NCBI GenBank assembly: GCA_964488475.1 | Contig: CAZAUK010000026.1 | Coordinates: 1 to 21,178 of the forward strand | Direction: 5' to 3' | Length of the DNA stretch: 21,178 nt | Origin: an uncultured bacterium | GTDB taxonomy: Bacteria > Krumholzibacteriota > Krumholzibacteriia > Krumholzibacteriales > WJIX01 | Part shown: piece by piece, positions 1-14,582 of the stretch | Layout of the letters: each line of letters starts with the position of its first letter | Position numbering within the stretch: position 1 is the stretch's first letter | Translations under genes and position numbers: made by a program | Notes under the pieces: model-generated | Told to the model about the DNA's origin: nothing | Databases searched by the model: none | Seen by the model: only the letters and a program-made list of their open reading frames with translations

Positions 1-37
1 GGGAAGAACGGGAACGAGAGCAATTTGGTTTATTTTA

Positions 38-84
38 GGAGGGCTATGCCCTCCCCCTTCAGGCCACCTTCTTATAAGGTGGCC
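38..84. other. Two adjacent GC-rich stem-loops downstream of the minus-strand CDS that ends at 101
   Basis: Read directly: GGAGGG-ctatg-CCCTCC (38-54, 6-bp stem) and GGCCACCTT-cttat-AAGGTGGCC (62-84, perfect 9-bp stem). They lie 17-63 nt beyond the stop of CDS 101..919. On the minus strand no U-tract follows them (AAAAUAAA instead), so this is not a canonical intrinsic terminator. Confidence 0.35.
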
Positions 85-100
85 GTTGACTCTGATTCCT

Positions 101-919
101 TTACTCGGAGTAGATCGATTTTATAGCGCCCCAGCTTCCCCGCTCCGAGTCCACCTGGCCGCAGTCGCCTTCATCGGCGATAAAAGCGCTCCCCTCTCCG
201 TTTTCATCGGTGCCCTGGAATTTTCCCGCGAAGGCGGAAGCCTGCTGCTCGTCGCCTTGAACGATCGAGCAGAGAGAGAGAAAATCATCAGCTGAATCGA
301 GCGTCGTATCCAGATTGCCCAGGCTGATGGTAAAAGCGACCGGTCCCGCGACAACCAGCGGGGAGTAGATATCTCCCTGGGGGACGCAATCGGATAGAAC
401 GTCTATGTCGATGAAGCCGCCCTTTACGCCCTCTTCGGTCTCCAGGGAATTGGTGAAGATGCCGTAGGCGCCGGTTGCTTCCATCTCGGTCAGCTCATAC
501 CAGCCGGAATGGGTCTCATCAGTGGAAAGAGTAGTGCATCCGGGTGGAATCGTCATTCCGTCAATAGTAGTCCCTGTGCTGTAAATCGACGATCCGGCCA
601 GGATCCTGGCTTCCGTGTAAGCCACGCTGGCGGCGGCAGGAACATTGAACATGAAAGCGGTCATCACCGGATTTCCCATGGCCGGGGACTGGAAAGGATA
701 AAGGCCGGAGATGTTTTCAAGGGTGAACTGAACATCGGCCGTTCCGGTTCCAGCGCTGAAATCGCCTCCCGTCTGGGTGAAATCTACATCAACCTCAAAG
801 GCCAGGTACTGTCCGAAACCGGTCTCTCCGGTCACGGTGCGCTGCATAACGTCCGCCTGAAGCAGGGCTGGACATAGCAACAGCGATATAACGAGAATCA
901 AAAAGTTGTTCCTGATCAT
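101..919 (-). CDS. Secreted hypothetical protein (272 aa) with C-terminal tail ...VDSERGSWGAIKSIYSE
   Basis: ORF track; N-terminal signal peptide MIRNNFLILVISLLLCPALLQA; strong RBS GGAGGGG 5 nt upstream of the ATG at 919; Thr/Gly/Ser/Asp-rich mature region. The C-terminal tail is shared with CDS 2835..3302. Confidence 0.75.
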   Translation of the reverse strand: MIRNNFLILVISLLLCPALLQADVMQRTVTGETGFGQYLAFEVDVDFTQTGGDFSAGTGTADVQFTLENISGLYPFQSPAMGNPVMTAFMFNVPAAASVAYTEARILAGSSIYSTGTTIDGMTIPPGCTTLSTDETHSGWYELTEMEATGAYGIFTNSLETEEGVKGGFIDIDVLSDCVPQGDIYSPLVVAGPVAFTISLGNLDTTLDSADDFLSLCSIVQGDEQQASAFAGKFQGTDENGEGSAFIADEGDCGQVDSERGSWGAIKSIYSE

Positions 920-966
920 TTTTACCCCTCCAGAAAATCTTTAAAAACAGAAATCCAATCTGCTTC

Positions 967-995
967 ATTCTAGCATAAATAAGCTGTTTATTCAA
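967..995 (-). promoter_or_regulatory. Sigma70-like promoter for CDS 101..919 (-35 TTGAAT, 17-nt spacer, -10 TAGAAT on minus strand)
   Basis: Minus-strand reading: TTGAAT (990-995 rc), 17 nt, TAGAAT (967-972 rc). The -10 lies about 45 nt upstream of the start codon at 919. The -35/-10 consensus form matches the promoter found upstream of CDS 2835..3302. Confidence 0.4.
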
Positions 996-1066
996 GGGCA
1001 GTTATAAGGCCGCGCCTGTATTCAGCCGCATTCGGGCTCTGTTTTTCGGCCCGGCTTCAATATACA

Positions 1067-2701
1067 CTATTTCATGATAAGGACCTTGCGCGTAAATGAG
1101 CGCTCTCCTATTCGAACCATCACAAAGTAAACACCGCCGGCGAGAGAGCCCCTGCAGCCGGACGCGGGATTCCACTCCTGAACAAACTGGCCTTTTCCGT
1201 GGATTCCTGCTGGAATATCGGACACTTTCCTTCCGGCTACATCGTATATCCCTATGTTTACCTCTTCCCTGTGTCCGAGAATGCAGTTAATGCTGAAACC
1301 GGCGCTGGTTGGATTTGGATAGATCTCCACTTGGTGCGGGAAACCTTCATCCGGCGGGCCGGAGTCTGTCACCACGACCTCCTCGCCGTACAGCAAAGCC
1401 GCGCCTTTGCCTCCTATGTTCCATCCTCCAGCCGCCAGGCTGCCCCCTCCGCCCGAATGCATTGTAAATCTTCCCGCCCCCGCCACCGAAATTCCCAGAC
1501 CTGAAGTGGTATCAGTCCCGACATCGGTGAAGGCCGCGGTGGCGGGCAGAGGATAGGTACCGGTGAACAGGTATACTTTTCCGAGCTGAACAGATGCCCC
1601 TCCATATCCGGGAGCGCCAATTATCATATCGCCGGTTCCATCTCCGTCCACGTCCGTGCTGGATATGGAATACCCGAATTGCTCTTCCATGAATTCTCCC
1701 ACCAGAGCGTCATCAGGTGTTCCGTCGACTATAGCTGCGCCCAGGAAGAAATACACCTTGCCCACATCGTCGCCGAAGAGGGAGTTGTAGTACGGGGCTG
1801 AGACTATATAATCATCTATCGAATCCCCGTTTATATCGCCTATGATTTTTGCCGCCGAGCCGAAAGCGTCTCCTACTGATACTCCTGTCATCTCAGCGTC
1901 GGCAACGGTGTCCATGGCCGCTCCGCACAGGTAGGCGTAAGCCTTTCCCGCCCATATGTCGGATTCATCGTTGCGGGGAGCCCCCACCAGCAGGTCATCC
2001 TCTCCGTCACCGTTTATGTCGCCTCCACAGTCTACTGTATATCCGAAAAAGTCGCCGGCGCCCTCACCGTAAAGAATTAAATCAGGATCCTGGTCCATGG
2101 GATCGCCACCAAAATATATGTATACCGCTCCGGTTGAATCCGCTTCGCAGGCTCCTACCACCAGGTCGTCGAAGCCGTCGGCATTAAGGTCTCCATTTAG
2201 GCACAGACCACGCCCGAAGCGGTCTCCGGAAGCTGATCCCTCAAGGACCAGGTCGGGAATCCCGTCCGGTGAGCAGCCGCCCAGAAAGAGGTACACGCGG
2301 CCGGGATCTTCTGACGCTCCAGAGGCGTATACGGCCACGTCGGAAAACCCGTCGTTGTTGATATCCCCCCCGCCGGCTACTCTTGTTCCCATCCTTTCGC
2401 CGGGGGCTCCGGTAAAGGTAAGGTCGGGAATCGAATCGGCGCTCATCCCGCCAAAATAAAGATAACACCGCCCGGCGGCGTCACCGCCGCTATCTTCCAG
2501 GTTGGCTCCCACCAGCAGGTCCTGGTATCCATCGCCGTTGAAGTCTCCGGCGCCGCAGAGCGAAATTCCGAATTGGTCGCTGATTTGCTGTCCTTGAAAG
2601 GTGGTGATCTTTTCCACCGATTGGGCAGGAAAGCTTATAAAAGATATCAGGAGAAAAGACGCCGAAAAGATCAAGAAAGATATTTTGAAGTAGTATTTCA
2701 T
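1067..2701 (-). CDS. FG-GAP repeat protein with a T9SS type-A C-terminal sorting domain (544 aa)
   Basis: Signal peptide MKYYFKISFLIFSASFLLISFISFPAQS. Many repeats of the form FG.S..GAGD.NGDG..DL.VGA, which are integrin-alpha FG-GAP/VCBS-like. The C-terminus YPNPTSAGFSI...IGIYDVAGRKV...GVYFVMVRIGERSFTRKVLIMK is a classic Por-secretion (T9SS) CTD. Confidence 0.85.
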   Translation of the reverse strand: MKYYFKISFLIFSASFLLISFISFPAQSVEKITTFQGQQISDQFGISLCGAGDFNGDGYQDLLVGANLEDSGGDAAGRCYLYFGGMSADSIPDLTFTGAPGERMGTRVAGGGDINNDGFSDVAVYASGASEDPGRVYLFLGGCSPDGIPDLVLEGSASGDRFGRGLCLNGDLNADGFDDLVVGACEADSTGAVYIYFGGDPMDQDPDLILYGEGAGDFFGYTVDCGGDINGDGEDDLLVGAPRNDESDIWAGKAYAYLCGAAMDTVADAEMTGVSVGDAFGSAAKIIGDINGDSIDDYIVSAPYYNSLFGDDVGKVYFFLGAAIVDGTPDDALVGEFMEEQFGYSISSTDVDGDGTGDMIIGAPGYGGASVQLGKVYLFTGTYPLPATAAFTDVGTDTTSGLGISVAGAGRFTMHSGGGGSLAAGGWNIGGKGAALLYGEEVVVTDSGPPDEGFPHQVEIYPNPTSAGFSINCILGHREEVNIGIYDVAGRKVSDIPAGIHGKGQFVQEWNPASGCRGSLAGGVYFVMVRIGERSFTRKVLIMK

Positions 2702-2775
2702 ATTGCTGCAAAGAGCTCTCTGCTTAAACTATTGAAGAAGCTGCAAGAAAAAATCATTGGTTCTCGTGTCCGGTG

Positions 2776-2813
2776 CAGAAAAGACAAGAAGCGCTCTTCA
2801 AGAGCGCTTCTTG
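2776..2813 (-). terminator. Intrinsic terminator for CDS 2835..3302
   Basis: Near-perfect palindrome CAAGAAGCGCTC-ttcaa-GAGCGCTTCTTG at 2785-2813 (12-bp stem). It sits 22 nt downstream of the stop and is followed on the minus strand by UCUUUUCU (2777-2784). Confidence 0.7.
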
Positions 2814-2834
2814 TCAGATTCAGACAGCTGTAAC

Positions 2835-3302
2835 CTATCTGTATATAGATTTCACCTTGCCCCAGGTTGACTCGTCCGCGTCCACAGGGGAGGTCAGATC
2901 GAATGAGGTCACAAGATTTTCCTCATTAAGATCGATGGTAGCGCAAGAAGTATCAACCGCGGTGCCAAGCTCGGCTGTAACGCAAAGGGTGTATTCACCG
3001 GGGGGTACTTCGTCAGGCAGAGGAAGTTCAAGTTCCTGAACGAAGATTTCGCCGGCGGGCATATATACCTGAATCATGCCGGTTCCGATTTCCTCTCCGT
3101 CTACGGTAAGTGCCACGGTAAGGTCTACCGTTCCTGGTTCGGTTCCGCAGTTCTCAAGCGAGAAGTAAAGCTGCAGAATATCAACAGGATCGCTTTCCAC
3201 TACTTCCGCTCCAAGCTCCACATCGACACAGTCTTCGGCGCTTGCCGGGGCGGCGAAGAAGGCGACAGCCAATACGCTGAAAAGTACCAGTAGATTCTTC
3301 AT
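2835..3302 (-). CDS. Small secreted hypothetical protein (155 aa) with C-terminal tail ...VDADESTWGKVKSIYR
   Basis: Signal peptide MKNLLVLFSVLAVAFFAAPASA. RBS AAGGGGGTGA upstream of the ATG at 3302. Acidic and beta-rich sequence. The tail is shared with CDS 101..919. Confidence 0.75.
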   Translation of the reverse strand: MKNLLVLFSVLAVAFFAAPASAEDCVDVELGAEVVESDPVDILQLYFSLENCGTEPGTVDLTVALTVDGEEIGTGMIQVYMPAGEIFVQELELPLPDEVPPGEYTLCVTAELGTAVDTSCATIDLNEENLVTSFDLTSPVDADESTWGKVKSIYR

Positions 3303-3361
3303 AAGTTCACCCCCTTAGAAGAAATTATCGTAAATCGATTCATATTTCTAATGCGTAACAT

Positions 3362-3390
3362 ATTCTAACATAAAGAGATAAAGCTGTCAA
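3362..3390 (-). promoter_or_regulatory. Strong sigma70-type promoter for CDS 2835..3302 (-35 TTGACA, 17 nt, -10 TAGAAT)
   Basis: Minus-strand reading: TTGACA (3385-3390 rc), a 17-nt spacer, then TAGAAT (3362-3367 rc), about 55 nt upstream of the ATG. Together with the terminator at 2776-2813 this makes the gene a self-contained monocistronic unit. Confidence 0.55.
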
Positions 3391-3688
3391 GGCTGGAATC
3401 GAGATCTTCGGCCCCGGCTGTTCCATCGCGCAGAGATGTAATCGGGCACATCGACTGTAAGCGCAGTTTCCAGCGGATGGCGAAGTGGACCGTAAAGTCT
3501 CTGTGGTTGAAACTTGGAAAGCATTTAAAATCTTCTTTTAAGATCTGGACGCATGGTATAAACCCGATTCCCGCCGGAAGCTTCGGGAAAGGAAGAACGA
3601 AGCTCCGGCCGGTGCTTATTGTCTTTTTAAGGCGCCGGGTATCGCGGCGCCTTTGAACGGCGCGGATTTTAAAGATGGAAGGAGAGAG

Positions 3689-4087
3689 ATGTCAGTAAGA
3701 AAAATTACGGTTTTATTTCTCGCTGTTATGGCGATTGTCCTATTCGCCGCCGACATCTATCCCAAGTGCGAGACCGCGGAATATATCGAGAACAGGGACA
3801 GGGAGAAGGAGGAGAATAAGGTCAGCGCGATGGTGCACGAGAGCCTGATGTACAGGCATTGGAACACCTACGACGACGGAAAGAGCCAGCACCTGTTTCA
3901 CATTCCAGCCGGTGGAGGTGACTGGAAGGACCTTACCCCCGGCTTGAAGTTCGACGCTCTCACCTACTGGCTCGCCTCGGCGGGAAGGGACTTCGATCTT
4001 TCTCCCGACGGCAAGACGATATATTTTTCAGGCAAACAGGCTGAGGACCAGGCGGTCTCCTACAACGAGGAGATCTGGATGGTATAG
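3689..4087 (+). pseudogene. N-terminal fragment of an S9-family peptidase with a PD40/TolB-like beta-propeller, truncated at 4087
   Basis: RBS GGAAGGAGAG before the ATG at 3689 (the track ORF begins at 3653). N-terminal TM/signal KITVLFLAVMAIVLFAA. Motifs ESLMYRHWNTYDDGKSQHLFHIP and LSPDGKTIYFSG resemble the first propeller blades of S9C acylaminoacyl / dipeptidyl peptidases. The ORF stops after 133 aa at the edge of an inserted cassette, and a collinear C-terminal remnant lies at 4829-4989. Confidence 0.55.
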
Positions 4088-4113
4088 CACAAAATCAAGC
4101 CGTTGTTTCTATA

Positions 4114-4584
4114 TCAGTCTGAATTCTGTTCTTCTGAGTTCTTCAGAGACTGCAATGCCTCCGCATCAGCTAAATCCTTGGTTCTTCCTGAGGCCTTCTT
4201 ATTTCGAATAAGGTCATCAATTAATGGAATGCGCACATCGATTCCTTCAATCTTCAGAGGCATGGACCGGTTATAGACTTCTTTAAATTGAAGCCCCGAC
4301 GCCGTAGTAATTATGTCGATTCGCCTTGGAGCGACTCCGATCTGAAAAATGGTACCATCTGTCTGGAGGTCTTTCCTTGTTAAATTATGCAGAGGAGAAC
4401 CGAAGCGGCGCAGTGCCCGCATCACGGCGTCAGCGTTTTCTGGTGATGGCATAATCCAAATGTCAATATCCATGGTGGCCCGGGGATAACCGTGAGCTGC
4501 CATTGCATAAGCTCCAACAAGAAGAAATTTAACCTTCTCGTTGGACAAGGCGTGTAACATTTCTTTGTAGTCTTCGTTCAGCAT
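4114..4584 (-). CDS. Small Pol-beta-superfamily nucleotidyltransferase (MNT-like, 156 aa), possibly the toxin or antitoxin half of a TA-like module
   Basis: NTase signature LLVGAYAMAAHGYPRATMDIDIWI, i.e. hG[GS/A]-x13-DhDh. The basic C-terminal segment is RNKKASGRTKDLADAEAL. GC content is visibly lower than in neighbouring genes. Confidence 0.6.
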   Translation of the reverse strand: MLNEDYKEMLHALSNEKVKFLLVGAYAMAAHGYPRATMDIDIWIMPSPENADAVMRALRRFGSPLHNLTRKDLQTDGTIFQIGVAPRRIDIITTASGLQFKEVYNRSMPLKIEGIDVRIPLIDDLIRNKKASGRTKDLADAEALQSLKNSEEQNSD

Positions 4585-4720
4585 CGTATTTTTTGCTGAG
4601 AGACGTTATCTCTCTTGTCAGAATCCATACAAGTTTAATGCGGTCTGCCGGATTGCCGGGAACAAAATCATCATCCCTGATATCCGACATCTGGTATAAA
4701 GATGTTTTTTTTCTATCCAT
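4529..4720 (-). CDS. Small ORF (63 aa, or 52 aa from the ATG at 4690) overlapping the start of the NTase gene; possible partner protein
   Basis: ORF track only. It overlaps the NTase start by 56 nt in a different frame. A possible promoter TTGCAG-16-TAAAAT sits immediately upstream, at 4721-4748 on the minus strand. I see no recognisable domain and no strong RBS. Confidence 0.2.
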   Translation of the reverse strand: MDRKKTSLYQMSDIRDDDFVPGNPADRIKLVWILTREITSLSKKYDAERRLQRNVTRLVQREG

Positions 4721-4828
4721 AATTTTAATATACCAGTTTTAACCTGCAATATCAATCGGATAGCTGTTTTGTGGACTTTCCCCATTTTTTCAGGTGAAGT
4801 CGAACAAGTTCCCTTGATTACGTTTTGA

Positions 4829-4989
4829 GACGGCCTTCTCCTCCCTTTCTCTCCGTCAAAAATGATCCGTTTTCCCGACGAGAACCATTGGATCCTTCAG
4901 CCTCATAACCAGAGGTTCTGGTATGCCTCTATCCTGGACTGGTTCGACCAGTGGCTGAAGCGGGGGGGCGAGCCGAAAGAGCAAGAGCC
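4829..4989 (+). pseudogene. C-terminal remnant of an S9 peptidase, including the catalytic-His region
   Basis: Translation DGLLLPFSPSKMIRFPDENHWILQPHNQRFWYASILDWFDQWLKRGGEPKEQEPEE*. It aligns with the C-terminus of the intact S9 peptidase in this window (MVRYPGEGHGNRKQPGRIDVLYRHLQWYDWYVK). It has no start codon and is bounded upstream by a stop at 4826-4828. It is in the same frame as the N-terminal fragment 3689..4087. Confidence 0.55.
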
Positions 4990-5132
4990 CGAGGAATAGG
5001 TTTTAGCTCTTTTTGCCGGTGGGTGGAAGATGAAAGATGTCATGGAGCCCGAGGCGCTTTATGCTTAGTGCCGGCATACCGGCCGCGGGCTCAAAGCCGG
5101 CGTTATGGGTCCAGCGCATTGGGGAGGGCTGG

Positions 5133-5507
5133 TCATTCCAGGCCCTCCCTGAAGTCCTCTTCGATGATCTCCTCGATTCGGCGGTCGTCCTCGTCGGTGC
5201 GGATAAGTTCCCGGACCCGCTCGAACTCCTCCTCCACTTGCTTTCCAAAGGTCTGGACAGTGATGAAGGTCCTCTTTCCGCTGTTGATCCTCTGAAAACG
5301 AAGCTTTCGAAGAAGGGATTCGTAAGTCTTGTTGGAAGTGTATCCGGATAGAGTATAACGGGTTACGAACTTTCCGCATTTGGCGCATTCCACGTAGACC
5401 TTTATGTTCTTTCCCTTGCAGAAGTACATCTTGTTCTTCATCTCGGTAGACCCGCAGTGCTCGCAGCGTTCGGTGCGGGCGGTTTCCTTTTTACTTCTGC
5501 AGTCCAT
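5133..5507 (-). CDS. Zinc-ribbon hypothetical protein (124 aa)
   Basis: RBS AAGGAGAG upstream of the ATG. Two CxxC pairs (CEHCGS...CAKCGKF). The C-terminal half is acidic/basic. I chose this ORF over the overlapping ORFs 4951..5295, 5037..5351 and 5065..5388 because it alone has an RBS and a recognisable motif. Confidence 0.55.
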   Translation of the reverse strand: MDCRSKKETARTERCEHCGSTEMKNKMYFCKGKNIKVYVECAKCGKFVTRYTLSGYTSNKTYESLLRKLRFQRINSGKRTFITVQTFGKQVEEEFERVRELIRTDEDDRRIEEIIEEDFREGLE

Positions 5508-5545
5508 GTCTCTCCTTTCAGCGGGAGGATGTTCCCGCGGTAAGG

Positions 5546-6913
5546 TTAAAAGAACAGGTATATGAACATAACTATGATTATTATTGATATGGAGGTAATC
5601 ACAGAGCCCGCCCTTATCATGGTTTTAACGTCTACCAGGCCGGAGCCGTAGGCGATGGCGTTGGGCGGGGTGCTGATCGGAAGTATCATCGCCGCCGAGG
5701 CGGCCAGGGCAACCACCACCGCGCTGGTCTCTGGCGCGAGGGCGGTGACTCCCACCACTATCGGGAGGAGCAGGTTGGCGGTGGCGCTGTTTGAGATAAA
5801 AGTGGTCATAACCGCCGCCGCCACGGCGAATATGAACAGTATCGCCAGTATGTTCATACCCTCGAACGGGATAAGACCCACTATCCATTCGCTGAGGCCG
5901 CTCTCTCTCATAGCGATTCCCAGGCTCATACCCCCGCCTATTATGAAGAGAATCCCCCAGCCGAGGTCGTTGAGGTCGTTCCCGCCCAGCAGCCTCAGGC
6001 CGAAAAAGACCACCAGAGGTATCAGCGCCACTATCGAGGAGGGTATTCCGTGGTATTTGGAGGTGAGCCAGAGAGCTACCACCACGCAGAAGACGGCCAG
6101 GATGAATTTTGATTTTCTGTCCATCTTTTCCTCTTCCTCCAGCCTGATACTTATCCGTTCGATTCCGGCGGGGTAGATCCTGCAGAGTACGAACCAGCAT
6201 ATCGCTATCAGCACGACCACCACCGGCAACCCGCGAATCATCCAGTCTATAAAGGAGATATCAGTTCCCATCTGGTTCAGGATCCCCATCGCAATCGCGT
6301 TGGGGGGAGTGCCGATAGGTGTTCCGATCCCGCCGATATTGGCCGCGAAGGGGATACCGAGTATCATGGCGTGTCTGAACCTTTCCCCCTTGGGAAAAGA
6401 GTTTATCACGGGAATGGCCACCGCCACCATAAGAGCGGTGGTGGCTGTGTTCGATATCCACATGGAAAGGAAGGCGGTGGTCACCATCATGCCCATAAGG
6501 ACCACCGTGGGCCTGGTCCCGACCCGTCTCATGATTCCCCTGGAAATCCTCTCATCCAGCCCGTAGCGCTTTACCGCCCGGGCCATTACGAACCCTCCCA
6601 GAAAGAGGACCACCACCGAATCGAAGAAGGGATGAAGGAATATGGTGTATCCGTTTCCGGAAAGACCCAGCGGTCCGCCCTCACGGGCCAGGAAGATCAC
6701 TTCCATGATAACGATGATGAATGAGGTAACATAGAGAGGAAAAGGCTCTATGACCCATAGGATGGCTGCGGTGGTGAAGATTCCCAGTGTGATCCTGCCC
6801 GCTTCCTCGAGGCCCGGGAAGTCGATCTGGCTCACGGCGAAACCGGCGGCGAGCGCCACTGCCAGGATGATTATGGTCCTGACGTTTGAGGGGGTAAGTA
6901 TTACGAACTTCAT
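5546..6913 (-). CDS. DASS/SLC13-family anion:Na+ symporter-like permease (ArsB/NhaD superfamily), 455 aa
   Basis: Polytopic membrane protein. It carries two hallmark SLC13/DASS motifs, WISNTATTALM and GTPPNAIA. RBS AAGGAGG upstream. Confidence 0.8.
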   Translation of the reverse strand: MKFVILTPSNVRTIIILAVALAAGFAVSQIDFPGLEEAGRITLGIFTTAAILWVIEPFPLYVTSFIIVIMEVIFLAREGGPLGLSGNGYTIFLHPFFDSVVVLFLGGFVMARAVKRYGLDERISRGIMRRVGTRPTVVLMGMMVTTAFLSMWISNTATTALMVAVAIPVINSFPKGERFRHAMILGIPFAANIGGIGTPIGTPPNAIAMGILNQMGTDISFIDWMIRGLPVVVVLIAICWFVLCRIYPAGIERISIRLEEEEKMDRKSKFILAVFCVVVALWLTSKYHGIPSSIVALIPLVVFFGLRLLGGNDLNDLGWGILFIIGGGMSLGIAMRESGLSEWIVGLIPFEGMNILAILFIFAVAAAVMTTFISNSATANLLLPIVVGVTALAPETSAVVVALAASAAMILPISTPPNAIAYGSGLVDVKTMIRAGSVITSISIIIIVMFIYLFF

Positions 6914-7080
6914 TCAGCCTCCTTGGTACCTTCATTGTCCCGAGCAAAATAACCCCGGGCCGTTTAAAAGTAAAACATAATCTCTAAAAACAGAGAATCC
7001 ACGGAACGGAGTCAGGTTTTGCGGAAAAACCGGCTTTCATCCTGAGTATGGTGGCGGGCTCTGCGAAAAGCAAAACCGGC

Positions 7081-7974
7081 CTACGACCCCTTAGATGCCT
7101 CATCCGTAGGAGCGTATTTTCTGAAAACAAGATAGGCCCCGGAGCCCAGAGCCGCGCCCAGCGCCATTCCCGCGGCTACGTCCAGCGGCCAGTGTGCCCC
7201 GATATAGATTCTGGAGATGGAGACTAGTATGGCGACTATAAATAGGGGAACTAACAACTTTCTGTAGACCAGGCCCAGAAAAAGCATCGCGGCGGTGATA
7301 TTGGTGGCGTGACCGGAGGGAAAGGAGAAAGATGATTTGTAGCTTCTGGTGACTTCCAGGGGGGTGGTCATCCAGCCCGAGTCTTCGCTCCAGAAGTGGA
7401 CCCCGCCCAGTACCTCCACCGGCCGAAGCCGCTCGACTGCCTGTTTCAGCAGACTGCTCGATATCTGATCGGAGGCGACAATAAGCGGTATCAGGGCCAG
7501 CGCGGCCCATCTGCCTCTGGTCTTCCCGAATATTACCAGCGCGGACCAGATCAAAAGCACTACAACTCTCAATCTGTCAAAATCAGTCACCGCCGGCATC
7601 AGGGTGTCCAGGAATCCGGTCTGAACAGTCCGGTTGAAAAATCTGAAGATCCGTTTGTCCAGGTCCGGTTGACCGGCGGCCAAGCGGCGGGCCGCTGACG
7701 CCGGAGAATCGGCTTGGCGTCCTGATGGAAAGGCGGGGGCGGGCCGGGCGGCTGGTACTTGCTTGCCAATTGGCGCGGCCGAGTCTTTCTCATTGCTCGA
7801 TTCAAGGGTCAGGACGGGTTTTGGGCGGCCTTCAAGCGTGTCGCGCAACGAGTTTCTTTTATAGTTTGCAGAAGGGCCGGCCCCGGCGCACTGGCTTGAC
7901 CCGGAAGAGCAGATCCAGCAGAAGGCGAAAACAGCTGCCGCCGCCAGAGAGGAAAATTTGCCTGATATATTCAT
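7081..7974 (-). CDS. PAP2-family phosphatase (type-2 phosphatidic acid / undecaprenyl-PP phosphatase-like) with a roughly 120-aa Ala/Pro-rich N-terminal extension
   Basis: All three PAP2 motifs are present: KQAVERLRP (KxxxxxxRP), SFPSGH (PSGH) and SRIYIGAHWPLDV (SRxxxxxHxxxD). Multiple TM segments. It starts 18 nt after the stop of the upstream outer-membrane gene. Confidence 0.8.
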   Translation of the reverse strand: MNISGKFSSLAAAAVFAFCWICSSGSSQCAGAGPSANYKRNSLRDTLEGRPKPVLTLESSNEKDSAAPIGKQVPAARPAPAFPSGRQADSPASAARRLAAGQPDLDKRIFRFFNRTVQTGFLDTLMPAVTDFDRLRVVVLLIWSALVIFGKTRGRWAALALIPLIVASDQISSSLLKQAVERLRPVEVLGGVHFWSEDSGWMTTPLEVTRSYKSSFSFPSGHATNITAAMLFLGLVYRKLLVPLFIVAILVSISRIYIGAHWPLDVAAGMALGAALGSGAYLVFRKYAPTDEASKGS

Positions 7975-7992
7975 CCAGTCCGCGCCCGCGCT

Positions 7993-8583
7993 TTAGAAAG
8001 TGAATCCTCCAAGCAGGGAGAAGTACTTGGTGGAACTGCCTTCGGTAAAGATTATATGGAACAGAGGTTTTATCTCCCAGGTCCACTTTTCAGACTGGTG
8101 TACGGTCACCCCGCCGCCCAGATTTAATCCCGGCTTGAACTCCGAATCCTTGTAAGAGGTTGTAGTGCCCGAGACGGTGGTCTCGACATCCCAGGAGAAC
8201 CTGTAGAATCCGAATCCGGCCTGGCCGAAGAAAACGGCAGCGCCCATCGTATTGGGATTGAATATGAATTTCGCCTGAGGCAGGAATTCCATCACCGAGC
8301 CGGACCCGTCGATATCGGCCTGGGGAACCGCCCATCCGCCCTTGTCCACTCCCCATCTGTTGTAGGCGATCCTTCCGCCTAAGTGCACCCAGTCGTTATA
8401 GGGATAGAATCCGTCCAGTCCCAGGCACAGGCCGGTGTTGTAAAAATCCCCCGCGTCGCCGACCGGCATGGACAGTCCCGCGCCGGCGCTGAATTCGAGC
8501 ATATCCAGTTTTCCCTGGGCCTTGGTGTGTGAGATCGGGAGAATAATAAGAAGCGCGAAGATCAAAACAGCGACTTTCCGCAT
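7993..8583 (-). CDS. Small outer-membrane beta-barrel protein (OmpW/OmpA-like, 196 aa)
   Basis: Signal peptide MRKVAVLIFALLIILPISHTKAQG. Alternating hydrophobic, Gly/aromatic-rich beta-strand pattern. The C-terminal GGFTF ends in Phe, the typical BAM signal. RBS AAGGAGG. Confidence 0.7.
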   Translation of the reverse strand: MRKVAVLIFALLIILPISHTKAQGKLDMLEFSAGAGLSMPVGDAGDFYNTGLCLGLDGFYPYNDWVHLGGRIAYNRWGVDKGGWAVPQADIDGSGSVMEFLPQAKFIFNPNTMGAAVFFGQAGFGFYRFSWDVETTVSGTTTSYKDSEFKPGLNLGGGVTVHQSEKWTWEIKPLFHIIFTEGSSTKYFSLLGGFTF

Positions 8584-8744
8584 TCGATTTCCTCCTTCGG
8601 CAATTTGTTCAGACGCTTTTCCCTCGTTCAGAGGCTGATAAAACCGGCGGGGCCCGCGAACTCGATTTCCGGCAATTCGGTTGAGCGTAGAATGCCAGCT
8701 TTCTTTTTATATTACAAGAAATGAATGATGTTTCAGCCGAAGAT

Positions 8745-9569
8745 TCATGGCCCCGTTAGTTCGATAAGGCGCCTGGAAAAGTTGAATCCGCCTATTTGAG
8801 ATACGATTGACCTTTTTCCAGCTGTAAAGGGAAAGTTTATCAGCTCCGGCCTGCCCGCCGGGCTCAGCGAAACATTCTCCAGAAATTCGCCACACTTCAG
8901 GATAGAGGACGGCAGGGTAGCGAAGAACATGAAATCTATCAGCCCTTCCGCTTCCCTCTGGTCGACAGAGCACATAACGGACCTTCCGGGAATAACAGAA
9001 GGATCTGTCTTAAAGACGGGCTGGTTCTTGGTAAAGAACCTTCCGGCCTTAAGATACGCGAAAGGATTGCGAGCCGGGAATGCCGGGACATAGACTCTGA
9101 AAGAGCCGGCTGATTCGATGCTGGAAAGAAGCGTTTCTATCTCCCTGCCGCCGGGGGCGGCTTTCCGGTTGGAGAGGCCCGCGAGCATTCTCAGCCTTGC
9201 CGTTCCAGAGCCGGATTCAGTAGCGCTCGCATCTTCAAGTTCCCCGCCATTTTCGATCCTGCCGGCGGCTATTTCTCCAACTGTTTTCCTGATTCTTTCC
9301 AGGGATCTCAGCATACGGATTCTGAGCTGAACCGTGTCTATTTCAATCGACCAGAAGGGGAGAAATATAGAATCATCACTGATTCCGTCATTCGGAAGGG
9401 CGCCGCGTATTCTGATTTCTTTAAGGCCGCTTCGGGATATTATGAAATAGTTATAGCAGCCGGCGCATTGAAAGGTGATGCATTCCGGGTTCCCTTCCAG
9501 AGCTGATCCGCATCTTGGGCAAACGAGTCTTTCTATGGTAAGGGATCCGTTCATATCAACTTCCTTCAA
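8745..9569 (-). CDS. N-terminal zinc-ribbon protein, paralog 1 of 3 (274 aa, no TM)
   Basis: CPRCGS...CAGC ribbon followed by a conserved PFW segment (IFLPFWSIEI). It overlaps the stop of the upstream gene by 14 nt, consistent with translational coupling. RBS GAAGGAAG. Confidence 0.65.
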   Translation of the reverse strand: MKEVDMNGSLTIERLVCPRCGSALEGNPECITFQCAGCYNYFIISRSGLKEIRIRGALPNDGISDDSIFLPFWSIEIDTVQLRIRMLRSLERIRKTVGEIAAGRIENGGELEDASATESGSGTARLRMLAGLSNRKAAPGGREIETLLSSIESAGSFRVYVPAFPARNPFAYLKAGRFFTKNQPVFKTDPSVIPGRSVMCSVDQREAEGLIDFMFFATLPSSILKCGEFLENVSLSPAGRPELINFPFTAGKRSIVSQIGGFNFSRRLIELTGP

Positions 9570-10662
9570 ACCATCTGCTCAGCCTGTGCTTGAGCCAACG
9601 GTGCGGGGCAATGACTCCGCCGCTTTTGACCTGGTCGGCCGTGTAGACAAGGGCGGCGGCGATGATCACCAGGGGAAACCAGGTGCCCGCCAGAAAGGCC
9701 AGCGCGGCCGGCACGAAAAAAAACGGAGCGGGATTTATCGTTTTTCTTTTGGGGACGTCGGAGCGGATAACAGCGCCGCTGGAGCCGTCTATTGTTATAA
9801 CGTGTATGATATCCCTGAACTTGTAGCGGATCAGGTAGACCGGGTAATAGTAAAGGGACAGGGATTTGCCGAACAGGTTGAATCTTCCGGCGTGGATTCT
9901 GGAGCCGGAGGGCTTGGCCAGGTTTATTGAATGTTTCAGGCAGTCGGCTTCCGCTTTCTTTTCTCCTGTCATGGGAATAGCGATATTCATGGAGGCCTTG
10001 AGGTCGTGGTTGAATACCTCCCATTCAAGAAGGGAGGCTCTGAGGGCTATTCCCTGAAGCCCGAGGTATCTTAGAACGCAGGCCGGGGCGCTCCAGTCCA
10101 CGCGCCTGGTTATGAATTTGGAGAAAGGATGTTTGACCTCCCTCACCGTTGTCGTGGTCATCTCTCCGTTTGGAGTGGCTACCGGCTTTTCGATCTTTTT
10201 AAGCTCGACCCGGTCTCCGCAGATCCATCCCATGAATCTTCCTCTCATCTTCCAGAAAGGCACGTAGACCAGCTTTTCCTCCATGATGGAAGTGTGTTTG
10301 GCTTTTACCAGGTCACCGCTCTCCTTGGAAATATGACGAATAGCGGTGAGCCTGGCCTTGCCCCCGGTTATTTCAGGCTTCAGGTAGAAGCTTCTGACTC
10401 CTCGAGGATCAGAGACGTACAGCCCGGCCCCGCAGTATTCACATTCCAGGCTCTTTACCCCTTCCGAGACTCTCAGCGATCCTCCGCATGACGGGCAGAG
10501 GGCTCCAAAAGTCTCCCGGGCAGCCGGCCGACCGGGGTCAGGTTCCTTTCCCCGGAACCGGCTTTCCGATACTGATGCTGCTACAGGGTCGAAGGCCGAT
10601 TGAAAACCTTCAGCCAAGCCGTGGCCCGGAACGCCCTTCTGGTAAAGAGTATGGTCATTCAT
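9556..10662 (-). CDS. Zinc-ribbon protein, paralog 2 of 3, with a C-terminal TM anchor (368 aa from M42 of the track ORF)
   Basis: Start trimmed to ATG 10662 because it forms an ATGAATGA overlap with the stop of the upstream CDS 10655..11359. Ribbon CPSCGG...CEYCG. Conserved YVPFWKMRG segment. C-terminal hydrophobic stretch FFFVPAALAFLAGTWFPLVIIAAALVY. Confidence 0.6.
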   Translation of the reverse strand: MNDHTLYQKGVPGHGLAEGFQSAFDPVAASVSESRFRGKEPDPGRPAARETFGALCPSCGGSLRVSEGVKSLECEYCGAGLYVSDPRGVRSFYLKPEITGGKARLTAIRHISKESGDLVKAKHTSIMEEKLVYVPFWKMRGRFMGWICGDRVELKKIEKPVATPNGEMTTTTVREVKHPFSKFITRRVDWSAPACVLRYLGLQGIALRASLLEWEVFNHDLKASMNIAIPMTGEKKAEADCLKHSINLAKPSGSRIHAGRFNLFGKSLSLYYYPVYLIRYKFRDIIHVITIDGSSGAVIRSDVPKRKTINPAPFFFVPAALAFLAGTWFPLVIIAAALVYTADQVKSGGVIAPHRWLKHRLSRWFEGS

Positions 10663-11359
10663 TGGAGGCCGCCAACTTGCCGCGAAGCTTGAAAAACAAA
10701 AATCCGGCCGCCGCGGCCGCTCCCAGCAGCACCAGCCTCGGCAGGGTTCCACCGGCCAGCCGGCCCAGAAAAAGGTAGCCGGCAAAAAGAGCGCCCGCGG
10801 CGATTATTCCGGGCTTATCCAGAGGTTCGGCTTTTCTGGGAGGCAGGCGGTCAATCTGAACCCACCAGCTTTCCCCGATGACCGCAGCTTTCCAACGCCT
10901 TTTGGACAGGTTAAAGGAGACGTCATAAACCGGCAGGTATATTATTCTGGAAGCGTCAGGGTCGACGGCGGAAGGCCTGATTATTTTTTCTCCCCCGGCC
11001 AGTTCCTGGTCAAAGTAGCAGTAATCGCCGGCGGGTGGATCCGGCATAGGCCCGACAGATGAAGGAGCGTCCCCGCTGGGGCAGGCGCTGTTGCCTCCAT
11101 CCTGATCTTCTATGATGAAGAATGGGGCGAAGGCGAATTTAATTCTGATGTTTTTGGCTCGTCCCATGTTTCGTTTCAGAAGAAACGACTCAAGTACATC
11201 TTCCGCGGTGCGGTCGTTCCTCTGGTGGGGAAGAATAAGCTGTTCCCCGCGGCCGCCGTCTTCCACGGTAAGGGCTGAACCGCAGTAAGAGCACCTCATC
11301 ATGCTCTGTCCTGGATGAACCCTGTTTTCGCCGCCGCATAGATCGCACTTGACCAGCAT
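10655..11359 (-). CDS. Zinc-ribbon protein, paralog 3 of 3, with a C-terminal TM anchor (234 aa)
   Basis: Ribbon CDLCGG...CSYCGS. FAFAPFFIIED segment. C-terminal hydrophobic stretch IIAAGALFAGYLFLG...LVLLGAAAAAGFLFF. It starts 2 nt after the stop of the SPFH gene (TAGAAATG). RBS GGGAGA. Confidence 0.65.
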   Translation of the reverse strand: MLVKCDLCGGENRVHPGQSMMRCSYCGSALTVEDGGRGEQLILPHQRNDRTAEDVLESFLLKRNMGRAKNIRIKFAFAPFFIIEDQDGGNSACPSGDAPSSVGPMPDPPAGDYCYFDQELAGGEKIIRPSAVDPDASRIIYLPVYDVSFNLSKRRWKAAVIGESWWVQIDRLPPRKAEPLDKPGIIAAGALFAGYLFLGRLAGGTLPRLVLLGAAAAAGFLFFKLRGKLAASNE

Positions 11360-11361
11360 TT

Positions 11362-12507
11362 CTAATCTCCCTGAACCCTTTCACCACAGTTTGTGCAGAA
11401 CTTCGTGCCGGGCGGCAGCTTGGCCCCGCAATGCCGGCATTTCAGATCCTCGCTCAGTTCTTTTCCGCAGTTGGAACAGAATCTGGCTTCCCCGGGCAGC
11501 TCCGTATGGCATTCGGGGCACCTGTTCATGGAGATGAGCTGGGCGCCGCAGTTTCTGCAGAACCTCGAATCGGATGAGACCTCATTGTGGCAGCGGGGGC
11601 AGTTCAGTTGCCCGGCCGCTGCTTCGCCCTGTCCGGCCGGCCGCCCCGTGACCGCCTGGGCGAGCATTCCGGGCATCATCATTCCCAGACCGGCTCCCAC
11701 TCCTATTCCCATTCCGCCGGCCGCGGCGCTTCCCGCGCCGCCGGTCCCGGCGCCGGTTGCTGCGTCCCCCATCGCTTTGGCCGCCTTGAACTTGAAGAAA
11801 CTGTCAAGATTTCCCACCGCCTGAAGCCCGCTCCTCTCGTCGATCATCTTCTGCACCTCGGCCGGAGGAGTAATGGAATTTATATACAAGTCCACCAGCT
11901 CCATGCCGTACTTTGAAAAGTCGTTTTCAAGACGGTTTCTTATTTCCACGGCCAGCTCGTCGTAATTCTGCGGAAGCTCGAATATGGTGTCGAGCTGCTC
12001 GCCGAACAGATCATTGATTCTGGAGACGATCACGTCTCTTAAATAGTTCCCTATCATCTCGCTGGTGTACACGCCCTGGGTCCCCACCACGTGGTTTATA
12101 AACAGGACCGGTTCCCTGATCTTGAAGGTATAGAGCCCGAAGGCCCTCAGCCTTACCAGACCCAGCTTGCTGTCCTTAAAGGCCACGGGATCCTTGGTCC
12201 CCCATTTCTGGCTTAGGAAGGTCTTCATGTTTACGAAGTAGACCTCGGCCCTGAAGGGACTTTTGAACCCCCAGGGAAGTGAGAGGACCTTGGTGAGAAT
12301 GGGAAGGTTTTTAGTGGTCAGAGTGTGGCGGCCGGAACCGAAAATATCCAGTCCCTTACCGTCCTTGAAAAAAACGGCGCTCTGGTTGTCTCGAACCACC
12401 AGCTGGGCCCCCATCTTGATTTCGGCTGATCCTTCAGGGGGCAGCCGGTGGACGATTTCTTGCCCGCTCTGGTCGAACCATTCCAGTACTTCCATAAACT
12501 GAGACAT
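11362..12507 (-). CDS. SPFH/Band-7 (Band_7_1, YdjI-like) domain protein with a Gly/Ala/Met-rich linker and three C-terminal zinc ribbons (381 aa)
   Basis: The start is set at M6 (ATG 12507), which follows the RBS GGAGGAAAG. N-terminal segments [18 protein letters not shown] and [27 protein letters not shown] match my recollection of the Band_7_1 family, often mis-annotated as 'virion core protein'. The C-terminus carries CPRCH..CRNCG, CPECH..CSNCG and CRHCG..CTNCG. Confidence 0.75.
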
Positions 12508-12860
12508 CTTTCCTCCATTCACTGTGTTTGTTATCTGTTATAATCACTGCGCTTAAGTGCGCCGGCGGCTTCATCCGCCGGGACTAGCCATAAAAATCAT
12601 CGTTGCTTATTTTTTCGGGTATATTCCATTTGAGCAAAGGGAGTGCCAAAATTCACCCTGCCCTGGAGTTATGGAGGAAAGCCCGGCCGCCGCCGGGCAA
12701 AATCTGTCTGGACAACCGATTTATATATTTTAATATATATGTAGCGCCACCGGCGGCCCGGTAAAGAATGATGAATATCGGTCTCCGCTGTGGGTCAGCC
12801 GCTTGAAAGAAGCAGCCGCGATGGCTGGGGGCAACGGTTTTAACAGGGAAACGGCCTGAG

Positions 12861-14582
12861 ATGAAATCATATATTCTGCCTTCGATCGTTCGGTATTTCA
12901 TATATCCCTTTTACCGGGGTTTTAGAAAGGACAGGGTTCTTTCCATACTGGATGAACTGGAGCGGAACCAGTGGCTGTCCTTCGAAGAGATAGAGGATAT
13001 CCAGTGGCGGAGGCTGATAGGCCTGCTCAAATACGCCGTCCTGCACGTACCCTATTACCGGGACCTCTTCAAAAAAAGAGATATTATGGCGGACCAGATT
13101 GAAAGTGCCTCCGATTTCAGGAAAATCCCTTTTCTTACCAGAAATCTGATCAGGGACAACAGCCGGGAACTGGTAAGCGGGGATCCCCTGCGCAAGGGTT
13201 ACGTCGCCAGCACGGGCGATTACGCCGGAGAGCTTCTTGATGTTTTCTGTGATTACTCGGCGGGGCCGGTCCGGCGTGCCAACACCTTAAGGCAGCTCAG
13301 GGCCGCAGGTGTCGACATAGGCGAGAAACAGCTGTATCTGGTAGGGTTTCAGAGTGACAGGCCGCTCAAAGAGCGCTTTAAGGAAGGGATCAAGGATTTT
13401 TTCTATAACAGAAGATTCCTTTCCGCTTTCGATATGTCGGAAGACAACATGAAAAGGTACGCTTCGGTGGAGCGTTCCTACAGGCCGTCTCTGGTAGTGG
13501 GGATTCCATCGGCCCTCACCCTTTTCTCGAAGTTCTGCCTTAACAATTCGATAGAGCTTCATACCCCCAAAGCGATCTTCACCAAGGGAGAGACTCTATA
13601 CCAGGATCAGAGGGAAATGATCGAGAAAGCGTTCTCGGCGCCGGTGTTCAACCGGTACGGATCTAGAGAGTTCGCCGAGGTAGCCTGCGAATGCGAAAAA
13701 CACGACGGAATGCACCTGTCAAGCGATCTGTTCTACGTGGAGGTTGTAAGGCCCGGCGGCGGGCCCGCCGCTCCCGGGGAAGAGGGGGAGCTGGTGATCA
13801 CCGATCTTTCAAATCTATATATGCCTTTTATTCGATACAGGACCGGCGATAAGGCCGTTCAGTCGGACAGGCAGTGTTCCTGTGGAAGGGGGCTTCCTCT
13901 CCTGGAAGGTATAGAAGCCCGAACGGTGGACTCGGTGAGGACGCCGGGGGGAAAGGTGGTTCCCGGTTTTTTCTGGATGTGGCTGTCCAGGACAGTACCC
14001 GGAGTCAAAAGGTTCCAGGTGGAACAGATGAAGTTGTCCTCCATAAATTACAGGATGATTCCCGGAAGGGGCTGGAAGGATGAATACGCTGAAGAGCTCA
14101 AGAAAAAAATTAGAGCTAACTGCGGAGAAAACATGAGCGTTAATATGATGATCGTTGATGAGATACCGGTATCTGAAAACGGCAGGGCCCGGTTCATGAT
14201 TTCTAATATAAAGGATAGGCTGGTAATAAAATCAAAGATTCACAAGGCGAACGTTACCGGGGTAGAGCCCGGCCTCAATGACTGTTTGCGGATCGACGCC
14301 GAACTCATGGATCTGGCGGACATATCTGAATACGAGAAGATACTCATAGTCAACAGCACCAACGGTTCCCGCCTGGAGACTTTCGCTGTCAGGGGAGAAA
14401 GGGGGACCGGGGAGATAGTCTCCTGCGGTGGAGTTTCAGCCCAGGTTTCCAGGGGAGATGAGATAGGCGTCATGGCATTCACCTGGTCCAGCGAACCGGA
14501 AAGCGCCTTCAGCAACATTCTGGTGGATGAAAAGAACAGGTTCTCGCGTTATCTTACCGAGACGGCTGGAGATAAGATTTAG
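12861..14582 (+). CDS. PaaK/CapK-family adenylate-forming enzyme (phenylacetate-CoA-ligase-like) fused to a C-terminal PanD-like, probably non-catalytic, domain (573 aa)
   Basis: The N-terminal roughly 440 aa show the PaaK/CapK/F390-synthetase-like signatures: WLSFEEIEDIQWRRLIGLLKYAVLHVPYYRDLF, IRYRTGD and EARTVDSVRTPGGKVVPGFF (the A8-like R.DD.....G..V.P). The C-terminal roughly 125 aa align along their whole length with aspartate 1-decarboxylase. Confidence 0.75.
   Translation: MKSYILPSIVRYFIYPFYRGFRKDRVLSILDELERNQWLSFEEIEDIQWRRLIGLLKYAVLHVPYYRDLFKKRDIMADQIESASDFRKIPFLTRNLIRDNSRELVSGDPLRKGYVASTGDYAGELLDVFCDYSAGPVRRANTLRQLRAAGVDIGEKQLYLVGFQSDRPLKERFKEGIKDFFYNRRFLSAFDMSEDNMKRYASVERSYRPSLVVGIPSALTLFSKFCLNNSIELHTPKAIFTKGETLYQDQREMIEKAFSAPVFNRYGSREFAEVACECEKHDGMHLSSDLFYVEVVRPGGGPAAPGEEGELVITDLSNLYMPFIRYRTGDKAVQSDRQCSCGRGLPLLEGIEARTVDSVRTPGGKVVPGFFWMWLSRTVPGVKRFQVEQMKLSSINYRMIPGRGWKDEYAEELKKKIRANCGENMSVNMMIVDEIPVSENGRARFMISNIKDRLVIKSKIHKANVTGVEPGLNDCLRIDAELMDLADISEYEKILIVNSTNGSRLETFAVRGERGTGEIVSCGGVSAQVSRGDEIGVMAFTWSSEPESAFSNILVDEKNRFSRYLTETAGDKI
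14196..14579 (+). other. PanD-like domain within the fusion protein (residues ~446-573)
   Basis: IKSKIHKANVT aligns with PanD LKSKIHRATVT, so K9, H11, R54 and T57 are conserved. The cleavage/pyruvoyl site G24-S25 is replaced by D-C (codons GAC TGT at 14280-14285). Y58 is F, and the N72 of NGAAAH is C (CGGVSAQ). An in-frame ATG at 14196 lies just upstream of the domain. Confidence 0.65.

Follow-up and report, generated by a model that had tools for sequence, protein, structure and literature searches.

MenT1 of Mycobacterium tuberculosis is a short nucleotidyltransferase (NTase) toxin that extends the 3' ends of tRNA, and it is blocked by MenA1, a 68-aa protein that is encoded upstream of it and has no DNA-binding domain (PMC10435456, PMC7450476). 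Here we describe a gene pair resembling this toxin-antitoxin (TA) system, MenAT1 (Rv0078B/Rv0078A), which lies within the remains of an S9 peptidase gene on contig CAZAUK010000026.1 of an uncultured Krumholzibacteriota bacterium (assembly GCA_964488475.1). The entire contig of 21,178 bp was analysed and is called the window below. We consider it highly probable that the locus is a pseudogene of a Dpp5-like S9 peptidase whose catalytic core was replaced by a mobile foreign cassette encoding a TA-like NTase.

The cassette NTase (156 aa) and MenT1 (~190 aa) are both short proteins with a pol-beta fold and a common G-x-...R-x-T-x-D-x-D motif, and in both systems a small partner (63 aa here, 68 aa in MenAT1), predicted to be helical or disordered and devoid of a DNA-binding domain, is encoded just upstream. 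Both pairs are also located in horizontally acquired regions. Unlike MenAT1, the cassette NTase belongs to a separate Pfam family (DUF6036) and falls below the threshold for DUF1814, its partner shows no similarity to MenA1, and the two open reading frames (ORFs) overlap by 56 nt. Because the DUF1814 threshold was missed, we describe the cassette as being like MenAT1 rather than as a member of that group, and by analogy it probably works in a similar manner. TM1012, a putative nucleotidyltransferase of Thermotoga maritima (PDB 2EWR/2FCL/4HX0), has a similar size (~160 aa) and fold (TM-score 0.58-0.59, Foldseek E 3e-3), yet its sequence similarity to the NTase is marginal (E 0.35) and, as a structural-genomics protein, it offers no mechanistic guidance.

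In MNT-HEPN systems, the gene for the HEPN toxin is found downstream of the MNT gene. The cassette shares with these type VII TA systems (MntA/HepT) a minimal pol-beta NTase within a two-gene mobile module but, unlike them, has as its sole conserved partner the 63-aa ORF upstream of the NTase, which gave no HEPN match. An earlier note on this DNA had proposed that a mobile, MNT-like or TA-like NTase module was inserted with an accompanying deletion, and had suggested looking for a HEPN or antitoxin partner. The mobile, TA-like replacement stands, while the link to MNT and HEPN does not: the nearest characterised proteins are MenT1 and AbiEii, and the conserved partner is the 63-aa protein encoded upstream, predicted to be helical.

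Remnants of an S9 peptidase gene

Two short ORFs in one frame of the forward strand were found within positions 3653-4999 (3653/3689-4087 and 4862-4999), and the opposite strand between them carries the ORFs of 156 aa (4114-4584) and 63 aa (4529-4720), which overlap at the start of the NTase gene. A shared frame of the two outer fragments has a chance of 1/3 and is no evidence by itself. A family-specific hidden Markov model (HMM; 687 nodes), built from 12 full-length S9 homologues and searched against all frames of 3200-5150, scored in just one forward-strand frame, with no other match in any frame: 3737-4087 corresponded to nodes 148-262 (E 2.6e-39) and 4853-4975 to nodes 645-685 (E 6e-17). 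The second remnant also matched Pfam Peptidase_S9 above the cut-off (29.1 vs 22.6 bits; profile positions 177-211 of 213), whereas the Pfam PD40 match of the first stayed below the cut-off (17.3 vs 20.9 bits). Both remnants matched the NCBIfam model Dpp5 (NF053518) collinearly (positions 132-231 and 620-655 of 655), with scores of 27 and 36 bits that are far below the 900-bit equivalog cut-off; judged on these matches, they resemble the Dpp5-like S9 subfamily, and the likeness is to be read as a subfamily resemblance. An exhaustive HMMER search with the first remnant returned 674 relatives, in the full-length ones of which query residues 17-132 aligned to residues ~150-266, and a single protein (P0124; 721 aa) matched both remnants, with 52% and 74% identity.

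An intact orthologue was found on a 195-kb metagenome contig (L024) by means of a degenerate DNA pattern drawn from the C-terminal fragment. This contig carries, at 2519-4630, a 703-aa S9 gene with PD40 repeats, a Peptidase_S9 domain (199 bits) and the motifs GGSFGG, HGELDYRV and DEDHW, i.e. the propeller-plus-hydrolase architecture of Dpp5-like peptidases, of which the window retains remnants only. The first remnant (3737-4083, forward strand), located inside ORF 3689-4087, is an internal piece of the beta-propeller, with 3737-4084 corresponding to orthologue residues 150-265 at 65.5% identity. The second (4853-4999, forward strand) consists of the last 48 codons plus the stop codon; 4853-4996 corresponds to residues 655-703 at 77-90% identity, and the DNA is 82.8% identical to L024 4481-4596. 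By family nodes as well as by orthologue residues, the propeller remnant lies upstream of the hydrolase remnant and collinear with it. DNA homology to the orthologue reaches its limit at 4083/4084 on the left and starts sharply at 4853 on the right. The missing middle corresponds to L024 3314-4480 (1167 bp, 389 codons) and is replaced in the window by 768 bp (4085-4852). The catalytic triad is incomplete, as the His motif FPDENHW in the second remnant alone remains and the GGSFGG Ser and HGELDYRV Asp regions lie within the deleted 1167 bp. On this sequence evidence, the locus is a pseudogene of an S9 peptidase gene, predicted to be non-functional.

These results bear out the earlier note, which had seen collinear S9 remnants around an NTase cassette and a catalytic Ser domain of more than 1 kb missing between them; the family model, Pfam, NCBIfam and the intact orthologue all agree, and the loss now has a length in orthologue coordinates. 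Its placement of the C-terminal remnant at 4829-4989 needs adjustment: the fragment is an S9 C-terminus, but the homology begins at 4853, downstream of an in-frame TGA (4826-4828), and the ORF ends at 4999. Compared to L024, non-synonymous (pN) and synonymous (pS) differences per site were 0.24 and 0.68 for the first remnant and 0.13 and 0.63 for the second, and neither contains an internal stop codon. As pN is far below pS and stops are absent, the lesions are recent relative to the time at which the orthologues diverged, and what is missing was lost by deletion and not by decay. Of the two Cys residues that the family conserves in YPDCPDLDC, the first remnant has lost one.

The gene order of the neighbourhood was compared among relatives. 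On L024, a macro-domain-like gene (-) is followed by the S9 gene (+), ~6.6 kb, a PAP2 gene (-) and a gene for a 196-aa protein (-), while the window has the S9 remnants (+), a Zn-ribbon gene (-), a DASS transporter gene (-), PAP2 (-) and the 196-aa gene (-). An intact orthologue had been expected in a Krumholzibacteriales metagenome-assembled genome (MAG; L004) whose transporter is 82% identical to that of the window. Its order, in the orientation of the window, is macro-domain gene, Zn-ribbon, transporter, PAP2 and 196-aa gene; the S9 gene is absent, and 145 bp alone (11776-11921) occupy the expected site, i.e. the gene has been lost completely. A different S9 peptidase of 681 aa is encoded ~2.5 kb away in L004 (14274-16319). 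In L001, which holds the closest relative of the first remnant (66% identity), the macro-like gene is divergent from the S9 gene. The L001 copy (383-1247) is split by frameshifts on a contig with ~2x coverage, which is probably a sequencing error rather than a second pseudogene. Since the gene order of the neighbourhood is shared, the remnants are placed by synteny at the orthologous position of a gene that one relative keeps intact and another has lost, and that is broken in the window. The proposal of a disrupted paralogue in the earlier note is thereby refined: the gene belongs to S9, but it is not merely a paralogue and represents the syntenic orthologue of a gene intact in relatives. The 706-aa peptidase elsewhere in the window (18834-20954) has its gene on the minus strand and shares just ~26% identity with the orthologue.

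The 5' side of the gene carries what we regard, from comparison with relatives, as a second lesion. The window lacks orthologue residues 1-149, which comprise the signal peptide and the first blades, as well as the macro-domain gene that precedes S9 in relatives. The six-frame search with the family model gave nothing upstream of 3737, and tblastn with the first 149 codons of the orthologue returned only noise in 3303-3736. The best local DNA match to the 5' part of the orthologue (3464-3504 vs L024 2660-2703; shuffle p ~0.03) was not accepted as evidence. The region upstream of the S9 homology (3303-3736) contains the start of the truncated ORF, with a Shine-Dalgarno sequence GGAGG, an ATG at 3689 and a positively charged MSVRK followed by a hydrophobic run, and this hydrophobic start shares no homology with the corresponding part of the orthologue. 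The earlier reading of ORF 3689-4087 as a signal or transmembrane segment plus the first blades was thus mistaken, as its S9 part starts at orthologue residue 150. Nor is there support for 3391-3688 as the ancestral promoter and leader, for which it had been taken, since the orthologue has coding sequence there and the macro-domain gene is gone; the sole strong promoter-like site nearby in a promoter scan (3390-3362, minus strand) faces a divergent 155-aa gene. An in-frame deletion joining the ancestral signal peptide to residue 150 was considered because of a likeness to the L001 signal peptide, but hydrophobic similarity is not diagnostic and the macro-domain gene has also disappeared; the segment may be such a relic or a start that arose by chance. 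At 3630-3654, just ahead of the truncated ORF, there is a perfect hairpin with a 9-bp stem (AAGGCGCCG...CGGCGCCTT), with no T-run after it on either strand, and an Rfam scan returned no RNA family anywhere in the window, including the hairpins of 3391-3688.

Extent, origin and mobility of the cassette

The cassette (4084-4771, minus strand, 688 bp) comprises a promoter, the 63-aa ORF and the DUF6036 NTase gene. It is 96.8% identical to L002 9814-10501 (GCA_034520215.1) and 93.3% identical to L003 9818-10501 (GCA_046483305.1), two loci from Krumholzibacteriota MAGs that share nothing with the window beyond the cassette and place it in unrelated contexts. Host genes shared with the L003 genome are ~72% identical. 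The GC content of the cassette is 0.43, compared to 0.53 for the contig, in agreement with the low-GC insert of the earlier note, and the contrast is also seen at third codon positions (GC3 of 0.47 for the NTase and 0.33 for the small ORF, compared to 0.72-0.735 in the remnants and 0.70-0.72 in the neighbouring Zn-ribbon and transporter genes). The 93-97% identity of the cassette against ~72% for host genes, together with these differences in GC and GC3, indicates by sequence comparison that the cassette is foreign and mobile. On its left side, the S9 breakpoint and the cassette end meet to the base at 4083/4084, and the TAG (4085-4087) that terminates the truncated S9 ORF is part of the cassette.

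Inverted or direct repeats at 4084 and 4771 were limited to short matches at chance level, no transposase or integrase is encoded in the 688-bp cassette (two ORFs only), and no target-site duplication was seen; attC was judged by eye, without a model. By the features checked, the cassette is neither a transposon nor an insertion sequence nor an integron cassette, and the absence of a transposase and of terminal inverted repeats had been noted correctly before. The sequences on either side of the cassette are entirely different from one context to the next. Across five contexts, the homology starts within 4-8 bp of one point, 12-16 nt upstream of the TTGATA-17-TATATT site, whereas the 3' end is variable. 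The locus is similar to other gene disruptions by TA or defence cassettes through illegitimate integration, with a small foreign module, many contexts, no transposase and deletion of recipient DNA; unlike integration with random breakpoints, the promoter-side end is more regular than expected.

The L003 copy brought along 336 bp of L002-type flank, which created a chimeric ORF of 149 aa and shows that the cassette travels within DNA segments of arbitrary extent and also harms genes at other sites. The N-terminal part of this chimera (L003 10594-11043, minus strand) is radical-SAM-type in appearance, and its last ~80 residues are the C-terminus of a 243-aa membrane protein encoded after the cassette in L002 (L002 10593-11324). 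An IS91-like transposase (Y2_Tnp, with a zinc-binding N-terminal region identified by eye), split in two overlapping ORFs, is located ~1 kb from the cassette in L003 (11516-12578, minus strand), with an rve integrase and other insertion-sequence genes nearby. One-ended mobilisation of the IS91 type was considered and rejected, as the orientation of the L003 Y2 transposase does not fit and no such gene is present in the window or L002.

Between the cassette and the second remnant lies a filler of 81 bp (4772-4852), which contains the in-frame TGA and had no match to the orthologue, to the other cassette flanks or to any locus compared. A diverged piece of S9 was also considered for it, but the similarity of 'SGEVEQVPLIT' to 'HGELDYRVPIT' did not reach significance (DNA p 0.27, protein p 0.09).

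Homologues that likewise have the small ORF upstream were found on plasmids and between IS6 copies, and also within a type I restriction-modification (RM) operon and next to an RM island. Individual contexts of the cassette were next to a Fic gene, next to VapBC within a type I RM operon, and beside a PDDEXK-plus-Dam island in two genomes, and these surroundings fit a TA or defence module. In these two genomes (L018 and L027, 3484-6000), the cassette adjoins the same island, which consists of genes for proteins of 151 and 93 aa, a PDDEXK_11 nuclease and a Dam-type methyltransferase. As the upstream flanks are unrelated, the cassette may be one part of a larger mobile defence island. No homologue was found in the phage genomes searched.

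The DUF6036 nucleotidyltransferase and its 63-residue partner

The NTase (4114-4584, minus strand), a putative MenT/AbiEii-like toxin, matched Pfam DUF6036 (PF19502) above the cut-off (28.1 vs 23.6 bits, E 2e-6), and NCBI gives its close homologues the name DUF6036 family nucleotidyltransferase. The PADLOC model for AbiEii matched the N-terminal part only (E 1.2e-5), and further Pfam matches were to DUF2204 and none to the MNT family. An exact-sequence look-up of the protein returned no entry. The protein collection contains 6820 homologues, and among the best 120 of these, all at least 77% identical, MAGs of Krumholzibacteriota, Myxococcota and the Desulfobacterota type are named. Between copies of the NTase, pS was ~0.55 and pN ~0.07.

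The pol-beta motif GA...T-x-D-x-D is intact, with VGA...R-A-T-M-D-I-D invariant, and G24, T37, D39 and D41 did not vary across 45 homologues. VGAYAMAAHGYPRATMDIDIW of the NTase aligns with LVGGFAVSARSEPRFTRDVDIV of MenT1, which corresponds to pol-beta motifs I and II, G[GS]...D-x-D, which serve to bind metal and nucleotide. In AbiEii/MenT toxins, the C-terminal motifs III and IV hold a conserved Lys and Asp that toxicity requires. A C-terminal block of the NTase, K129...G133-R134-T135-x-D137-L138-x-D140, is also invariant; no sequence method aligned it to K137 and D152 of MenT1, and the fold match to MenT1 extends over the whole protein at modest TM-scores. Using an AlphaFold2 model of the NTase (pLDDT 81.5), a Foldseek search of the PDB placed MenT1 (8AN4/8AN5/8RR5) on top (E 1.6e-4, probability 1.00, TM-score 0.48-0.62), with TM1012 next, and a sequence search of the PDB also gave MenT1 first (E 0.055 with the single protein, E 0.0025 with a profile).

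The 63-aa ORF (4529-4720, minus strand) putatively encodes the antitoxin or partner, and it stays unbroken and unchanged in length in copies whose DNA is 80% identical. Its pN/pS was ~0.2 in its own frame, while pN exceeded pS in the other two frames, and 17 homologues were found in the database. Its equal length in diverged copies and the low ratio in its own frame point, from sequence conservation, to a real protein-coding gene under purifying selection. On plasmids of Geminocystis and Acidisarcina, distant homologues of the NTase (39-47% identity) are preceded, in the equivalent position, by a small ORF that is recognisably related and ends in ...RLQR...VQR. The Geminocystis plasmid pGM02 (L026 1865-2438) has this small ORF labelled 'toxin secretion, membrane fusion protein', an apparent mis-annotation, and the pair sits within a type I RM operon, adjacent to a VapC family toxin gene that is itself preceded by a small overlapping hypothetical ORF. 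AlphaFold2 predicts a disordered N-terminus and one long helix for the 63-aa protein.

A sigma-70-like promoter of the cassette (4727-4755, minus strand) was identified in a promoter scan (TTGATA, 17-nt spacer, TG-TATATT; 10/12 matches with an extended -10) and is conserved in the five contexts. Its -10 hexamer ends 6 nt ahead of the ATG at 4720, which suggests that the predicted mRNA is leaderless or nearly so. A programmed frameshift from the 63-aa ORF into the NTase was considered but not retained, as the A-run at the overlap is not evidently conserved (SKKY in the window vs SKNH and SKRH, from translated copies only) and the +1 shift needed is unsupported.

Possible origins of the disrupted locus

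Our preferred explanation is that an S9 peptidase gene once stood between a macro-domain gene and the genes for the Zn-ribbon, DASS transporter, PAP2 and 196-aa proteins. Its central 1167 bp, with the remaining propeller and the core of the hydrolase, would have been swapped for the 688-bp cassette plus the 81-bp filler, and a second lesion would have taken codons 1-149 and the upstream macro-domain gene. The cassette is most likely a TA-type addiction or defence module of the MenAT1/AbiE kind by analogy, given the NTase matches to DUF6036, AbiEii and MenT1, the conserved small ORF and the 68-aa upstream antitoxin of MenT1. The NTase would nucleotidylate a cellular target, by analogy the 3' ends of tRNA, and the small upstream protein would neutralise it. 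The cassette would move from one genome to another as a short piece of DNA that has no transposase of its own, and the probable route is illegitimate recombination of incoming DNA that deleted recipient sequence at the target, perhaps in two steps.

Several observations weigh against this explanation. The match of the NTase to Pfam AbiEii/DUF1814 (PF08843) remained under the cut-off (17.1 vs 22.5 bits; positions 8-61 of 238), and its likeness to MenT1 is modest, at 15-18% identity and the TM-scores given above, with a sequence alignment confined to the N-terminal motif. The 63-aa protein had no family or structure match and no detectable similarity to MenA1, and a literature search for the name DUF6036 found nothing. 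The junctions show no visible microhomology or repeats, so that the mechanism is not pinned down, and the origin of the filler and the 5' lesion remain unexplained. In addition, two contigs of an independent Logan assembly (SRR7048220), L022 and L023, which are 100% identical to window 26-4495 and 4812-11507, respectively, do not cover the 316 bp between them (4496-4811), including the cassette-filler junction at 4771/4772.

An alternative explanation, which we consider improbable, is that the gene had already been killed by internal and 5' deletions and that the cassette arrived later as a passenger. This would account for the separate 5' lesion and for a filler that is not part of the cassette elsewhere, and the complete loss of the gene in L004 implies that it is dispensable. 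However, the S9 breakpoint coincides with the cassette end to the base and the remnants show little neutral decay. Insertion with simultaneous deletion is the usual outcome of illegitimate integration, which also speaks against a late passenger, and the order of events is not resolvable from one sequence.

A broader interpretation of the cassette itself appears similarly doubtful to us, namely that the DUF6036 NTase and its partner form an unusually conserved mobile TA or defence module that spreads without a transposase by a mechanism defined at one end and remodels host genes, the S9 gene here and the chimeric ORF in L003. The promoter-side boundary, within a few bp in five unrelated contexts, would argue for a one-end-defined mechanism, and the best 120 of the 6820 NTase matches retain their identity of at least 77% across several phyla with synonymous sites near saturation.

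That the contig is an assembly chimera, joined through a cassette repeated in the community so that the S9 fragments are not truly adjacent, is very unlikely. The cassette is indeed multi-copy and near-identical in related genomes, and the Logan contigs break inside the NTase gene (4495) and inside the filler (4812), the latter stop suggesting a branch in the assembly graph, with a second haplotype that has the right-hand side in common. A chimera would nevertheless require two independent complementary truncations of one gene, and both flanks belong to the same S9 subfamily, have the same best matches (P0124 and L024), lie on the same strand in the right order and are accompanied by syntenic neighbours. 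Furthermore, the left junction (4084) was reproduced by L022, in which the S9 ORF cut by the cassette is visible on its own, and L023 alone shows the C-terminal fragment preceded by non-S9 sequence with a stop codon.

Least probable of all is that ORF 3689-4087 is a functional new gene for a small secreted propeller fragment: although it has a good Shine-Dalgarno sequence and ATG, an N-terminus that is first positively charged and then hydrophobic, an uninterrupted frame and pN below pS, the latter is expected anyway after a recent truncation, its 116 residues amount to about two blades of a multi-blade propeller and would probably not fold by themselves, the stop codon comes from the inserted cassette, one of the conserved Cys residues of YPDCPDLDC is gone, and the searches found only the ORF itself and a frameshifted fragment on a contig with ~2x coverage with this extent.

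Elsewhere on the contig, a 573-aa protein with a C-terminal aspartate-decarboxylase (PanD) domain (12861-14582) is encoded just upstream of a canonical 119-aa panD (14928-15287), an arrangement also kept in L004. A protein encoded at 11362-12522 (minus strand) combines an SPFH/Band-7 domain with three fused zinc-ribbon motifs, and several ORFs without any Pfam match adjoin its gene (7993-11359).

The locus neither opens nor settles a major question. As a Dpp5-like S9 pseudogene replaced in its core by a cassette, it would represent an ordinary kind of event, the loss of a gene through a mobile TA-like module, and the secreted peptidase concerned has been kept or lost altogether in relatives. 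For annotation, the two short ORFs should be treated as pseudogene fragments, and the 63-aa gene, which is often missed by gene callers, should be annotated. Overall, the locus provides a clean and well-delimited case of small TA-type cassettes eroding the genomes of uncultured Krumholzibacteriota-like bacteria, and the stronger lead is the abundant and highly conserved pair of DUF6036 NTase and 63-aa protein, which by analogy is a reasonable candidate for a MenAT1-like system that may target tRNA.

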